A stretch of DNA of 64,000 nucleotides. Source: Escherichia phage REP4. Location of the stretch: sequence record OQ174503.1, one strand, 5' to 3'. Both the position numbers and the translations under genes were made by a program. Shown piece after piece: positions 17,347 through 58,184 of this stretch. Under the pieces are notes generated by a model. That model was not told where the DNA came from. It saw nothing but the letters and a program-made list of their open reading frames with translations, and made no database searches. Each line of letters opens with the position of its first letter. Positions within the stretch are counted from its first letter, which is position 1.

Positions 17347-18138
17347 ATGGCAATTGTAGGTGTTCCTGGCTGGATTGGTGAATCTGCCGTGAATGAAACT
17401 GGACAACGTTGGATGGATGCTGCAATGAAAGCAGTTCGTGTTTCAGTTCCTGGTTGGATGAGCTCAATGGCTGGACAATCTAAAGAAGTATATTACAGCA
17501 TTGGTGCTAGCAATTCTTATAATAAAGATACGCTAATAAATTGGATAAAAGCCCAAGGAAGTACTCCTGTTGTTATTACTATTACAGGAAATATTGTTTC
17601 TCAATCTACTGGTGTTCCATGCTTAGATTTTCCTAGCTCATTAACTAATGCATATGTTACCTTAAATATTAATAGTGGGGTTCATGTATTAGGTCGGGGA
17701 GGAAATGGCGGAAGTAACTCTGCTGGTGGAGCAGGAGGAACTGCAATAAATAACGGAATTGGAACTCGTTTAAGAATAAACAATAATGGTATTATTGGTG
17801 GCGGCGGCGGTGGCGGCGCAGGTGCTAGATACAATCCTTTCCCTCAAATGGATATGAAATTTGGTGGCGGCGGAGGTCGTCCATTTGGCGCAGCTGGCGC
17901 AGCAGGAGGTGGCGCAGCTGCAGCATCTGCTGGTACAATTTCTGCTCCCGGTAAAGGCACTGTTTCTGGGGTTCACCATGGAGGAGATGGTGGAGATTTA
18001 GGAGCTGCTGGCAAATCTTCATATATTCAAGGTGGTACTGGAGGAACTATTCACTCGGGTGGCGCAGCAGGTAAAGCTGTTACTGGTAATGCTCCAACTT
18101 GGACTAAAGTTGGTACAATATATGGTGCAAGAGTATAA
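17347..18138 (+). CDS. 38: Tail-fibre adhesin gp38 (T2/T6 type) with glycine-rich motifs, 263 aa
   Basis: ORF track; conserved N-terminal gp37-binding region followed by poly-Gly islands (GGGGGGGAGA, GGGGGRPFGAAGAAGGGAAA, GGDGGDLGAAG, GGTGGTIHSGGAAG) separated by variable segments. Confidence 0.92.
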   Translation: MAIVGVPGWIGESAVNETGQRWMDAAMKAVRVSVPGWMSSMAGQSKEVYYSIGASNSYNKDTLINWIKAQGSTPVVITITGNIVSQSTGVPCLDFPSSLTNAYVTLNINSGVHVLGRGGNGGSNSAGGAGGTAINNGIGTRLRINNNGIIGGGGGGGAGARYNPFPQMDMKFGGGGGRPFGAAGAAGGGAAAASAGTISAPGKGTVSGVHHGGDGGDLGAAGKSSYIQGGTGGTIHSGGAAGKAVTGNAPTWTKVGTIYGARV

Positions 18139-41368: not shown

Positions 41369-41572
41369 TCACGATTTATCCCCATAGATGTCTCTCATCA
41401 ATTTAAGCGCTGAGCGTTCTAATTTCTTTTCTTTCTCAACGCTAATCATTGATTTCATCCATTCTTCTGATTCGTTCTGCATTTCTTTATTTGCTTGTTC
41501 AACCCAACCATCATCAATGTACATTGAGTTTGGTCTATTGAACCATTCAAACATTTTCTTCAGAACTTTCAT
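41369..41572 (-). CDS. Hypothetical 67-aa protein
   Basis: ORF track; ATG start. Confidence 0.55.
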
Positions 41573-42032
41573 TTATTTTACCTAAAACAACAGTAGGAGC
41601 ATCATCAAATTTATGAATTTTGAGTAAATTTGGATTTAAATTATTCCATAAAGAGGTAATAAAATATGATAGCGCATTTTCTTCTGTAATTATAAATTTA
41701 TTTCCCTTATCTATTTTCCAGTCATATATTGAATCATATGAATATAATGGCAGCGGTTTATTGTTATAATATGCTTCAGAAACATCAATATAGTTAGATT
41801 TAGTAAATGCTTGAATTGACATAAATGGAGAATTTCGTACAGTTTCAATAATTCCGATCTTTTTAAGTTTTATTTCAACATCTTCTGGAACTGGCATTGA
41901 AATAAAATCTTCTACTAGATACATGTTATTATCATATCTTTTATCAATCATTACTGCTACTGTAATTGGAACATCTTTAGCAAACGACATACTATTACTA
42001 CTAATATACATTTCAAACAAAATCGCTTCCAT
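41547..42032 (-). CDS. Hypothetical 161-aa protein (mrh position by size)
   Basis: ORF track start is TTG; ATG at [12 protein letters not shown] with RBS GAGGAAAATT. Confidence 0.55.
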
Positions 42033-42040
42033 AATTTTCC

Positions 42041-42382
42041 TCAATCACAAGATGTAGATGAACAACTAGAATCACAAGAACTTCCACACGAATCGCCCGT
42101 CCATACATGAACAGGAACATTAGTGTCATATGAATTAGAACTAGACTGTGTATTCTGTGTATTAGATGATGTAGTAGGTGTTGACCAACGCCAAGGATTT
42201 TTATAATATTCTTGGGCTTCTTCATAAGTCATAGTAACTGCTTCTACTGTTCCATCTCCCATATAAACATATTCAACTACAGTTAAAGGAAGGTAGTCAT
42301 TTGAAATAGGAACTACGCCTTCTCCGGGAGTCGTAGAGAAAAAATCCGTAAAGAAGCTTTTAAACCAATTAAAGATAAACAT
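42041..42382 (-). CDS. Hypothetical 113-aa protein with Ser/Thr-rich linker and Cys/Ser-rich C-terminal tail
   Basis: ORF track; hydrophobic N-terminus, [22 protein letters not shown] low-complexity region, C-terminus [18 protein letters not shown]. Confidence 0.55.
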
Positions 42383-42588
42383 TACAAAAAGCCTCTCTTG
42401 AATTCAACTTGCTTCTCGCCATAATCATATCGAATCTCTGCATTAAATTCGACAGAACCATCTGCATACATCATAAATGAATGCACAACAACTTCTGCAG
42501 ACCATGGCTGCAGTTCATATTTCTTCATTACATGCCGTGAAATGATAATATCTAAATCTTCATTTGGTTTAATCCAACGATTTAACAT
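42382..42588 (-). CDS. Hypothetical 68-aa protein
   Basis: ORF track; ATG; early promoter upstream. Confidence 0.55.
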   Translation of the reverse strand: MLNRWIKPNEDLDIIISRHVMKKYELQPWSAEVVVHSFMMYADGSVEFNAEIRYDYGEKQVEFKRGFL

Positions 42589-42614: not shown

Positions 42615-42645
42615 ATTATACCATTCTCATTTTGGAAAGTAAACC
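42615..42645 (-). promoter_or_regulatory. Early promoter (GTTTAC, 19 nt, TATAAT)
   Basis: Minus-strand GTTTAC at 42640-42645 and TATAAT at 42615-42620. Confidence 0.55.
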
Positions 42646-42654
42646 AGTAAAATG

Positions 42655-42679
42655 AAAAAGGACTCCCGGAGGAGTCCTT
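42655..42679 (-). terminator. Terminator AAGGACTCC-TCCG-GGAGTCCTT plus U-run after soc
   Basis: 9-bp perfect stem followed by a T-run on the minus strand, 5 nt after soc stop. Confidence 0.8.
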
Positions 42680-42967: not shown

Positions 42968-43141
42968 TCAGTCTTCAACGAAAACTTGCGCCAGGAATTC
43001 ATGTTCATCTTGAATTTGTTTATATAAAGCCATTACAGCATTTATATTAGAGCTATCTACTTTAAGCTGATAAGCATACAACTCGTATAAATTAATTAAA
43101 GCTTTTTGACGTCTAATAAATTCTTCTTTGGATATTTTCAT
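42968..43141 (-). CDS. Hypothetical 57-aa protein (soc.1 position; not in ORF track)
   Basis: Manual translation MKISKEEFIRRQKALINLYELYAYQLKVDSSNINAVMALYKQIQDEHEFLAQVFVED; ATGA overlap with upstream ORF. Confidence 0.45.
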   Translation of the reverse strand: MKISKEEFIRRQKALINLYELYAYQLKVDSSNINAVMALYKQIQDEHEFLAQVFVED

Positions 43142-43341
43142 TTTGAATGTTCTATAATTAATTTTAAGGCTTCTTCGCTGACAAAAATTTCATCAGGACC
43201 TTCTTCTACAACCCAATCAACCACACGAAGCTGATTAGATAAGAGCTCACATACGAGCTCCTTGTCATAATTTTTAAATAGCTGGTCAATACGTTTCTTG
43301 CGGGCTTTCTTAAGCTGGCGTTTATTTAAACGAGCCATCAA
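43138..43341 (-). CDS. Hypothetical 67-aa basic protein (soc.2 position)
   Basis: ORF track; ATG overlaps gene 56 stop. Confidence 0.55.
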   Translation of the reverse strand: MMARLNKRQLKKARKKRIDQLFKNYDKELVCELLSNQLRVVDWVVEEGPDEIFVSEEALKLIIEHSK

Positions 43342-43856
43342 TAACCTCGGTCTTGACGAGCGAAGTTTTCAGCATTTTTCAGATAATAAAGTTTAAAGAT
43401 TTCTTCAGCCGTAAGACCGAGACCTTGGAACATGTTCAGAACGAAATGAAGAATATCAATCATTTCAAATTTAATTTCCAACTGGTCTTGCGGAGACAAA
43501 TCAGTAATTAGAGTTTCACGACGTTCACCATGCTGTGACTTCCAAGGTTTCCATACAGCAGATGCATCTTTTTCGCCATTGCTCATACCGCCAAGAGATG
43601 TCAGAAGTTCACGGAATTCATCGTCAATATAATCTTTCTGATTACGCAGCCAATCAACAACTTCACCAGCAGTAGCCAAATCATCAGGATGACGGTTATA
43701 TTCAGGTTTATCTTTAGCTAAACGAACCTGCAAAGATTTCTGCATATCAAGCATAACCTGCAGCGGGTCTTTTTCATCACCGAGAATATCCCAGTATTCG
43801 TTTTGAGCTTTATCAGCGCCTTCGATCAGTTGTGAACATTCATTAAAGTATGCCAT
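43338..43856 (-). CDS. 56: dCTP/dUTP pyrophosphatase gp56 (MazG-like), 172 aa
   Basis: ORF track 43338..43949 shortened to ATG at MAYFNECSQLIEG; size and position as T4 gp56; N-terminal extension in track runs through intergenic DNA. Confidence 0.85.
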   Translation of the reverse strand: MAYFNECSQLIEGADKAQNEYWDILGDEKDPLQVMLDMQKSLQVRLAKDKPEYNRHPDDLATAGEVVDWLRNQKDYIDDEFRELLTSLGGMSNGEKDASAVWKPWKSQHGERRETLITDLSPQDQLEIKFEMIDILHFVLNMFQGLGLTAEEIFKLYYLKNAENFARQDRGY

Positions 43857-43927
43857 TATTTTTCCTTTCAATTCATGGATTAGTAGATTAATTATACAAT
43901 AAATATATAAAGCAATAAGGAGGACAT

Positions 43928-44128
43928 ATGGTACAAAAATTAATGGCACTTGTTAATGCCATAAAAGGTAATAAAAAACGTATAGCTTTTACTATTTCTG
44001 CTATGATAGGAATTTTACTTTGGAATTTTGTTTTATCGCCAGTAGCTATTGCTCATGGCGTTAGTATTCCAGTAATTACTCTTGATACATTCGTAGATTT
44101 AGCATTTGCTTTAGTTGGGTTAATTTAA
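43928..44128 (+). CDS. Hypothetical 66-aa two-helix membrane protein on the opposite strand
   Basis: ORF track; strong SD AAGGAGG 4 nt before ATG; hydrophobic segments; only plus-strand ORF with a good RBS inside the minus-strand early region. Confidence 0.5.
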   Translation: MVQKLMALVNAIKGNKKRIAFTISAMIGILLWNFVLSPVAIAHGVSIPVITLDTFVDLAFALVGLI

Positions 44129-47155: not shown

Positions 47156-47338
47156 TTATCCTCGGCAATCCACTTCACATACTTTCTTGTCATCAATGAA
47201 AGCTTTAACTAATGCTTTATTAACTTCAGCATATTGAGTAGTAGCCCATTGAACGTCATCTTTCATCATTGTGATTTCTTTAGTAAACATGCTTTCATTC
47301 TTAAACCACCCCATAAAAACTACCTTTACCAATTCCAT
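47156..47338 (-). CDS. dmd: Dmd-like antitoxin (inhibitor of RnlA/LsoA toxins), 60 aa
   Basis: ORF track; 60 aa, directly downstream of helicase 41 with its own early promoter, as T4 dmd (61.5). Confidence 0.6.
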   Translation of the reverse strand: MELVKVVFMGWFKNESMFTKEITMMKDDVQWATTQYAEVNKALVKAFIDDKKVCEVDCRG

Positions 47339-57190: not shown

Positions 57191-58150
57191 TCACTTCCAC
57201 TGCATTTCACATGCCAATTGAATGAAAAGATATGCTAAATGTAATTCAGTATTAGCCGCAATTCCATGATACTGGTTATTTTCACCAACAATTTCATACA
57301 TACGAATAATACTTTGCGGAGTTACGCGTGTATAGATTTCTTCAGCAAGTTTACCAACGAACCACGAATAATCAGCCGCATATTTTGGTGCTAAAGCTCT
57401 GAGTTGTTTAACATCTTTATTTTTGAGAGACTCAAGAACATCATCAATAGCACCACGATCGTTAGTAACCAGTGATAAAATACCAGCATCCAAAACACCT
57501 TTAGATGAATAACTATCGAGCTCACCAATAGTTTTACGAAAATCAGGAAAATTCTTTTTAACCAAAGCTGCTACAACTTTCATATCAGCTATAGCAATTC
57601 CTTCATGCTTACAGATTTCAGTCAATCGACGAATCATCTGCTTCATCATTTCAATTTTATCTTCATCGGTCGGTTGACCGAACGTAATAACTCGACAGCG
57701 TGACTGAAGTGGTTTAATAATACCATCAATATTGTTAGCAGTAATAATAATACTACAGTTTGAACTATAAGCTTCCATAAAGGAACGAAGATGTCGCTGA
57801 GACTCTGCTAATCCTGAACGGTCAAATTCATCAATAACGATTACTTTTTGACGACCATCAAATGAAGCTGCACTGGCAAAATTAGTCAAAGGACCACGAA
57901 CGAAATCAATTTTACAATCTGATCCATTCACAAACATCATATCAGCATTTACATCATGACACAATGCTTTTGCTACAGTTGTTTTACCTGTTCCTGGAGA
58001 AGGAGAATGAAGAATAATATGTGGAATCTTACCTTTACTTGTAATAGATTTAAAGGTTTCTTTATCAAAGGCGGGAAGAATACATTCATCGATAGTAGAT
58101 GGACGATATTTCTGTTCAAGAATGTGTTCTTTTTCATTTACAGTAATCAT
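57191..58150 (-). CDS. 44: Clamp loader large subunit gp44 (AAA+ ATPase), 319 aa
   Basis: ORF track 57191..58165 shortened to ATG at [17 protein letters not shown]; Walker [11 protein letters not shown]. Confidence 0.94.
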
Positions 58151-58184
58151 AATTTCCTCATTCAAGTTTTAGTGTAAATTATAA

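Follow-up and report, generated by a model that had tools for sequence, protein, structure and literature searches.

Bacteriophage T4 carries the gene block soc, mrh.2, mrh.1, mrh, srh, mod, in which Mrh and Srh are known as early modulators with sigma-32-related phenotypes. The gene lying between mrh.2 and mrh, downstream of soc, is listed in the T4 reference record as mrh.1 with the product "Mrh.1 hypothetical protein". It is by no means new: an mrh.1 feature is present in record M30001 of 1990, and the product is catalogued as DUF7206, a family which, like the PHROG family 2031 that it also matches, has an unknown function. In T4 the mrh.1 transcript is classed as early (PMC9697503 supplement), it is represented by thousands of RNA sequencing reads at 5 min and rises 2.5-fold in the absence of DksA (PMC6024815 supplement), and this rise in the dksA mutant fits the statement of the same paper on genes located downstream of the early promoter Pe15.0 (PMC6024815). 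Here, we addressed the counterpart of this gene in a 64,000-nucleotide stretch of Escherichia phage REP4 (OQ174503.1), hereafter the window, where it occupies positions 42041..42382 of the minus strand as an open reading frame (ORF) of 113 codons with ATG start and TGA stop. An original prediction, made from the letters of this DNA, had assigned to the product a hydrophobic N-terminus, a Ser/Thr-rich linker and a Cys/Ser-rich tail, and proposed a membrane-anchored, metal-binding or disulfide-rich exported peptide. The explanation that we favor, at a probability of about 0.45, is different in emphasis: the product would be an early effector of the DUF7206 family, translationally coupled to its upstream neighbor and disordered, with a C-terminal tail acting through thiols and carboxylates.

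That this ORF represents mrh.1 of a T4-type phage (Tequatrovirus), its product being a DUF7206 member, is close to certain. The window protein coincides with T4 Mrh.1 (AAD42613.1 / UniProt P20706) in 111 of 113 residues, the two differences being N83 instead of D and T95 instead of A. It matches DUF7206 (Pfam PF23836) with 1.2e-29 and 103.4 bits, the gathering cut-off being 25.6, so that residues 3-113 cover profile positions 1-107 of 107, and PHROG 2031 with 2.6e-33; its neighbors, mrh.2 with soc beyond it on the upstream side and mrh on the downstream side, likewise place the ORF in the orthologous position. At the nucleotide level several hundred T4-type phages share 95-97% identity with the segment 41500-42977, and tblastn detected mrh.1 in 501 phage records, each time with at least 80% identity. 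Thus the gene is a standard resident of such genomes, and in this one sense the description as unusual for a T-even early protein is wrong. An exhaustive phmmer search over 1.8 billion representatives, followed by a profile search, extended the family to approximately 141 clusters with PF23836 found in every full-length one, while for all 85 of the 85 aligned relatives DUF7206 was the sole consistent family match. Among the named members are JS98 Mrh.1 and proteins from IME08, vB_EcoM_RZ and Enterobacter phages. When two distant members served as tblastn queries, the family was found in T4-like phages infecting Klebsiella, Enterobacter, Cronobacter, Citrobacter, Serratia, Edwardsiella, Erwinia and Kosakonia, the gene being located each time some 14 kb into a genome of T4 order. 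An alignment of 85 diverse DUF7206 members defines as conserved residues W6, K8, F11, E37, Y38, Y40, M41, G42, D43, G44, E47, V49, C103, C112 and D113, and the family motifs, namely the N-terminal W-x-K-x-x-F, the hairpin YMGDG..E.V and the C-terminal SCD...SCD, are present in the window protein.

The codon alignment of seven Tequatrovirus genes indicates that the mrh.1 frame is under purifying selection. Variable sites are distributed over the three codon positions as 17/10/27, 19 codon columns vary synonymously only, and within the first 67 codons all changes are synonymous except for S9N and an ATG-to-GTG replacement of the start codon, whereas indels measure -9, -12 and +153 nt. Frame 0 is stop-free in all relatives, and the other two sense frames carry 3-17 stops. 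Hence the frame is real and conserved, as follows from almost exclusively synonymous change outside the spacer and from in-frame indels, and the reservation of the original prediction that it might lack conservation in relatives fails. The start codon is preceded at a distance of 9 nt by a GAGAGG Shine-Dalgarno sequence (42392..42397, minus strand), read from the sequence inside the end of mrh.2, and the mrh.2 stop overlaps the mrh.1 start as TAATG; an overlap of this stop/start kind joins the gene to its small upstream neighbor in three distant relatives (L007-L009) as well. An opposite view, according to which the tail is a functionless low-complexity segment or translation uses a frame other than that of the ORF or of its 3' half, could draw on the +1 frame (42013..42225), which is open over about 60 codons in close relatives, on the failure of liquid chromatography-mass spectrometry (LC-MS) to detect the protein, and on slippage with a 9-bp duplication in the spacer. 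The +1 frame, however, is interrupted by stops in the long form from phage Sf24 and in every distant relative, so that it does not qualify as the translated one; the Shine-Dalgarno sequence and the coupled start belong to frame 0, the tail motif persists between genera even though their spacers cannot be aligned, and Cys and Ser codons of the tail change synonymously within Tequatrovirus (TGC/TGT and TCA/TCG). Judged by these comparative data, this view is already largely refuted, and its chance is next to negligible. Some database entries represent disrupted copies: P0006 is a frameshift read-through into the +1 frame, and frameshifted or truncated genes are also behind P0009 (phage TadeuszReichstein bas43_0141) and P0004 (vB_EcoM-Sa45lw_27). 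Either errors of sequencing or natural loss of the gene account for them, and they agree with mrh.1 being conditionally dispensable.

The protein is composed of conserved elements separated by variable segments. Residues 1-18 (42329..42382, minus strand, as are all features of the gene given below) constitute an amphipathic aromatic helix, modeled by AlphaFold2 for residues 4-15, with a hydrophobic moment of 0.56 over residues 3-15; its core across the family is M-I-x-W-L-K-x-L-F(-K), extended by TDFF in the T4 type, and a second family element, the P-G-E-G-x-V-P segment, follows. The only ordered part, residues 34-67 (42182..42283), is predicted as a beta-hairpin with strands 34-40 and 46-52 (predicted local distance difference test, pLDDT, 73-85) and subsequent helices 53-61 and 63-67. 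The nearly invariant family motif of the hairpin reads [RK]E[YW]xY[MV]GDGMMEEV, positions E37, Y40, G42, D43, G44, E47 and V49 being invariant or almost so. Residues 68-93 (42104..42181) form a hypervariable Ser/Thr/Asn-rich spacer, predicted to be disordered (pLDDT <50), which accommodates in-frame indels and most of the amino-acid changes and cannot be aligned between genera in either length or sequence. It contains a 9-bp tandem duplication (42146..42163), AATACACAG twice on the coding strand, encoding NTQNTQ; since the relatives compared carry one copy of the unit (T2, Sf24 and SHFML-11) or none (Sf23), the spacer evolves by slippage. Behind the spacer the relatives possess a hydrophobic IVVTAAAVSSW, shortened to VPVHVW in the T4 type, and then a Ser/Tyr/Asp/Gly-rich tail. 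Within Tequatrovirus itself a long form of 164 residues occurs in Shigella phage Sf24 (L006 547-1041), in P0003 and in Yersinia phage fPS-90, and its in-frame insertion of 51 residues (…AGNVGAGALPLNSKKLKEHLD…IDTAPIITxTAVSSW) corresponds to the middle part of homologs in other genera. Accordingly, the T4-type spacer has the appearance of a product of deletion, the segment being ancestral, or else the long form may have come from intergeneric recombination. Based on the 85-sequence alignment, AlphaFold2 gave for the window protein a mean pLDDT of 58 and a predicted template modeling score (pTM) of 0.26 with residues 68-113 disordered, and the model of a distant member reproduced the same N-terminal helix, hairpin, helix and disordered tail, the pTM of both models being in the range of 0.23-0.26. 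Foldseek against the viral models of BFVD returned members of the same family only (fPS-90, EcS1 and RB69 ORF025c), and sequence and profile searches of PDB gave no match for the whole family or for the tail alone.

The Ser/Thr-rich central region and the Cys/Ser tail quoted in the original prediction are found exactly in the 113-residue product. It contains 18 Ser and 15 Thr (33 of 113 residues together), 4 Cys and 13 acidic (D/E) versus 3 basic (K/R) residues, with an isoelectric point of 4.05. All four cysteines fall within the final 15 residues with the spacing C-x3-C-x3-C-x4-C. The six-frame scan of the window revealed at least 4 Cys in 15 residues for just 3 of 134 ATG-initiated ORFs of 60 or more codons, and the other two, 17770-17979 (minus) and 57956-58177 (plus), are antisense inside the gene of a Gly-rich gp38-like adhesin and gene 44, being composition artefacts rather than genes. 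At the local Cys frequency of 1.08% the binomial probability of such a density is 1.7e-5 per 15-residue segment, and conservation in 113 family proteins places the Cys tail beyond chance.

Comparison of these 113 proteins shows which part of the acidic tail (residues 94-113, 42044..42103) belongs to the family. C103-D104 and C112-D113 are family-wide, and C99 and C107 were added in the T4 lineage, to which the alternating four-Cys pattern is confined. The penultimate Cys resides in SCD[ST] in 102/113 proteins, and the chain ends with CD in 111/113 and with CN in 2/113; the short form of AV110/RB69 ends with SCE. From 4 to 10 G/S residues, mostly 6-8, separate the last two cysteines, which gives the family signature ...YDSG..SCDS-(G/S)n-SCD-COOH with two conserved Cys, retained in phages of Escherichia, Klebsiella, Enterobacter, Cronobacter, Serratia, Edwardsiella, Erwinia and Citrobacter. 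The pair of Cys-Asp dipeptides at the chain end is the sole strictly conserved C-terminal feature, and as the last Cys-Asp persists irrespective of the sequence behind the stop codon, selection acts on it at the level of protein; the Cys-bearing tail is under selection. At least two other lineages gained a third Cys on their own (ESCO47 and P0122, 3 Cys each, compared with 4 in the T4 type). Familiar metal-binding designs were not recognized. Neither a zinc ribbon, nor a zinc knuckle, nor a treble clef is apparent, as CxxC knuckles are lacking, the tail is predicted to be disordered and no zinc-domain match was obtained in Pfam or PDB; the metallothionein-like pattern is likewise absent, given 4 Cys in 19 tail residues of the T4 type, 2 in most relatives and no CxC or CC. 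The suggestion of metal binding or disulfide formation is better centered on the family-wide SCD...SCD-COOH than on the four-Cys pattern of the T4 lineage.

The cellular location can be judged from hydropathy. The highest Kyte-Doolittle mean over 19 residues is 0.84 for the window protein and does not exceed 1.34 in 113 relatives, none of which (0/113) reaches the transmembrane threshold of 1.6, and reading of the sequence revealed neither the h-region of a signal peptide, nor a cleavage motif (AxA), nor a lipobox. The N-terminal element shared by the family spans no more than about 10 residues, contains Lys and passes into PGEG. These properties run counter to a membrane-anchored or exported protein, so Mrh.1 is very probably neither exported nor membrane-spanning, and we infer from its sequence that it resides in the cytoplasm. 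As to the hydrophobic N-terminus of the original prediction, it is aromatic and amphipathic (the hydrophobic moment is 0.4-0.8 across the family) and not a continuous hydrophobic segment, having K8 and D13 inside. The abundance of Phe, Trp and Ile and the strong amphipathicity are what speaks for an exported or anchored disulfide-rich peptide with the N-terminus serving as signal or anchor; the amphipathic helix may also attach the protein peripherally to the membrane on its inner side or bind a partner. With the hydropathy and the N-terminal features described above, and with the hydrophobic stretch of the relatives, IVVTAAAVSSW, measuring about 12 residues and deleted in the T4 type, export or anchoring appears highly improbable. 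Tail-anchored topology mediated by the same stretch was also considered and rejected for its hydropathy (at most 1.34) and its absence in the T4 type.

Taken together, the following scenario may be proposed. Transcribed early from a promoter upstream of mrh.2 and translationally coupled to this gene, mrh.1 encodes a small, very acidic, largely disordered and probably cytoplasmic protein with three conserved elements split by variable spacers. As a host-takeover effector, it may dock on a host or phage partner through the N-terminal helix and the mini-domain of hairpin and helix (EYxYMGDGxxEEV), whereas the flexible tail ...SCDS-(G/S)n-SCD-COOH would serve as a thiolate/carboxylate "claw", either chelating a soft metal ion or capping a metal or thiol site of the target; the T4 lineage has doubled the tail thiols to four. 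That the tail works through thiol-based ligand or metal binding is a tentative part of this scenario, with the odds tilted somewhat against it. Independent gains of extra Cys argue that a role for thiol number fits better than a single fixed disulfide.

The main rival explanation regards the tail not as a metal ligand but as a redox-active dithiol/disulfide loop that would exchange with thioredoxin or glutaredoxin or act as their decoy. In class Ia ribonucleotide reductases, the C-terminal cysteines of the large subunit (NrdA in E. coli) operate as a redox shuttle. T4 NrdA ends with ...ETPKADDCAACKL (DDCAACKL), so it has in common with Mrh.1 that two Cys are carried by a C-terminal tail of flexible and acidic character; moreover, the Mrh.1 tail is predicted to be disordered, and a G/S loop varying from 4 to 10 residues between conserved cysteines is something that a disulfide-closing loop tolerates. 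Nevertheless, the likeness to NrdA is compositional, with no homology supported by alignment, such a loop accounts neither for the Asp that invariably follows each Cys nor for the terminal carboxylate, the independently gained third and fourth cysteines are superfluous for one disulfide, and the E. coli cytoplasm is reducing. A redox loop is unlikely, though it deserves more credit than any other alternative to the thiolate/carboxylate tail.

The composition of the tail, which resembles cores of lanthipeptides or linear azole peptides, brings forward another explanation, namely, a precursor of a ribosomally synthesized and post-translationally modified peptide, where a long leader precedes a Ser/Thr/Cys-rich core converted to lanthionine, azole or thioether products. 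The T4-type tail has a weak match to the FxLD precursor core TIGR04363 (E 0.034, 14.1 bits), two relatives weakly match the YxzE-like family of putative bacteriocins, and a modified peptide is expected to escape standard proteomics. But the 14.1 bits have to be set against a curated cut-off of 30 bits, and P0018, a typical two-Cys member, gives no match; among the neighbors in four distant loci there is no dehydratase, cyclase, YcaO, radical-SAM maturase or lanthipeptide synthetase; and the failure of detection is already explained by the sizes of tryptic peptides. PADLOC and NCBIfam searches produced no meaningful match for Mrh.1. A modified peptide is accordingly a very remote prospect.

Several observations weigh against a coupled early effector with a thiol/carboxylate tail. 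Two Cys and two Asp in a floppy G/S loop do not make up a recognized metal-binding motif, CxxC knuckles being absent, and the family has no match among metal-binding families of PDB or Pfam. Both AlphaFold2 models are of low confidence (pLDDT 58-60). The literature searched yielded no relevant main-text mention of mrh.1, mrh.2, DUF7206 or P20706 and no experiment on Mrh.1 function. The time-resolved proteome of T4 contained Mrh, Mrh.2 and Srh but assigned no protein class to Mrh.1 (PMC9697503 supplement); because the predicted tryptic peptides of Mrh.1 have 8, 53, 4 and 48 residues and are unsuitable for trypsin-based LC-MS, this non-detection is expected and provides weak evidence against translation. 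Finally, the region from gene 56 to dda is described as dispensable in T4 (PMC6070864), and disrupted mrh.1 copies exist in a few phages, therefore any function of mrh.1 has to be conditional.

Even so, the conserved tail motif offers a concrete handle for assigning function to an uncharacterized T4 early protein, and the present data sharpen the description of an orphan family that keeps to a single locus in T4-like phages, whose enterobacterial hosts belong to ten genera or more. The most far-reaching version of the proposal regards SCD-(G/S)n-SCD-COOH as a "warhead" directed at a host protein common to Enterobacterales, of which it would seize a reactive cysteine or the metal center, plausibly in the heat-shock/sigma-32 circuit addressed by Mrh and Srh. 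We hold this version to be improbable, somewhat more so than the redox loop; if true, capture of a host metal or thiol site by a tail would represent a mode of host takeover so far undescribed for phages and a new kind of small phage effector.

The genomic context of mrh.1 agrees between near and distant relatives. Upstream, the coupled partner mrh.2 (42382..42588, minus strand) encodes 68 residues assigned to PHROG 1873, function unknown, and has homologs at the same position in two distant contigs (L008 and L009) and in Mosigvirus AV110. It is preceded by a promoter-like site of early sigma-70 type with an extended TG element, TTTACT-17-TGnTATAAT (42615..42643, minus), which judging by position probably corresponds to Pe15.0 of T4, and by a strong intrinsic terminator-like hairpin after soc with a 9-bp stem and a T run (42658..42679, minus). 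Downstream, mrh (41547..42032, minus; 161 residues from the ATG at 42032; Pfam T4_MRH, 5.5e-42) has a GAGGA Shine-Dalgarno sequence overlapping the mrh.1 stop codon. The window retains the T4 block from soc to mod, and the order soc, mrh.2-like gene, DUF7206, T4_MRH, Phage_T4_Y01E and Mod ADP-ribosyltransferase is found in three distant contigs (L007-L009) as well as in AV110. In the latter phage the Mrh.2 homolog (L011 2217-2444, minus) ends with ...EEVVCC and overlaps mrh.1 by 35 nt, and an extra ORF of 59 residues starting with MNKIVKWFKSW is inserted between mrh.1 and mrh. The AV110 homolog of DUF7206 would by order be CDS 124, which is not among the six inhibitory proteins of a toxicity screen of 45 early proteins that did not name the homolog and may or may not have included it.

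Genes with links to sigma-32 phenotypes share their transcription with mrh.1 and are coupled to it in translation. Smith-Waterman alignments were compared with those of 2000 shuffled sequences, E. coli RpoH of MG1655 (L013 2930-3784) being the target. The positive control Srh (41369-41572, minus) aligned to residues 243-279 of sigma-32, i.e., to region 4, with p of about 0.0025, consistent with its T4 annotation as a postulated sigma-32 decoy. Mrh.1 gave p of 0.31-0.34 and the N-terminus of P0018 gave p of 0.45. The N-terminus (FIFNWFKS / WLKNLFKTK) had seemed to resemble the sigma-32 segment LFFNLRKTK. Mimicry of the RpoH box by the Mrh.1 N-terminus was thus rejected, with p of 0.3-0.45 and two apparent matches lying in different registers. 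Paralogy of Mrh.1 and Mrh.2, considered on account of a shared ...DG..VE.. stretch and N-terminal W-[IL]-K, was also discarded, as BLASTP found no match and the hhalign probability was 0.6%. For the N-terminal helix, a beta-clamp-binding motif and inhibition of FtsH in the manner of lambda CIII were conceivable as well, neither of which we claim. An N-terminal pattern M-x(1-10)-W-[FILV]-[KNR], defined post hoc, occurs in 4 of 167 window ORFs of at least 50 residues, all on the minus strand: in the co-transcribed srh, mrh.1 and mrh.2, and in an ORF at 47156-47338, which looks like dmd, judging by the position of an annotated dmd-type gene in AV110.

Other observations concern more remote parts of the window. 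Two small ORFs of 57 and 67 residues lie between soc and gene 56 (42968-43341, minus), in the place taken by the homing endonuclease gene segF in T4 and by a soc.1-like gene in phage teqdroes; homology to T4 at the nucleotide level ends at about 42977, and the junction looks variable and prone to mobile elements. The mechanically defined ORF of gene 56 (dCTPase; 43338-43949, minus) begins with a GTG that adds a hydrophobic extension of 31 residues, the true start probably being an internal ATG (MAYFNEC...). The ORF of td (thymidylate synthase; 1184-2056, minus) is an uninterrupted frame of 290 residues; T4 reference td carries a group I intron, and by comparison td of the window phage would be intron-less.

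With respect to known systems, the closest one is T4 Mrh.1 itself, which has the same position, gene overlaps and tail as in the window, the two loci being distinguished upstream of soc by segF in T4 and two small ORFs in its place here. Two-Cys DUF7206 proteins (JS98 Mrh.1, IME08, vB_EcoM_RZ, CC31/PG7-type Enterobacter phages, Klebsiella phages, and RB69 ORF025c / AV110 WPK33969.1) share with it the helix, PGEG-VVP, EYxYMGDGMMEEV, SCD...SCD and synteny; they differ in having 2 rather than 4 Cys and in retaining a YDSG/SSY-rich segment along with IVVTAAAVSSW, both lost in the T4 type, and the AV110/RB69 form comprises 82 residues only. Mrh and Srh have an early transcription unit and synteny in common with Mrh.1, which displays no significant similarity to RpoH, unlike Srh, or to Mrh.2. 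The flexible acidic tail of T4 NrdA, carrying a Cys pair within its last dozen or so residues, resembles that of Mrh.1 by analogy only, with C-x2-C compared to C-x4-10-C and with no enzyme domain in Mrh.1. Precursors of lanthipeptides and linear azole peptides (TIGR04363 FxLD) resemble Mrh.1 in that a longer N-terminal region precedes a C-terminal segment rich in Ser, Thr and Cys; Mrh.1 is set apart from them by the sub-cut-off score, the lack of a nearby maturase and the two family-wide cysteines, each followed by Asp.

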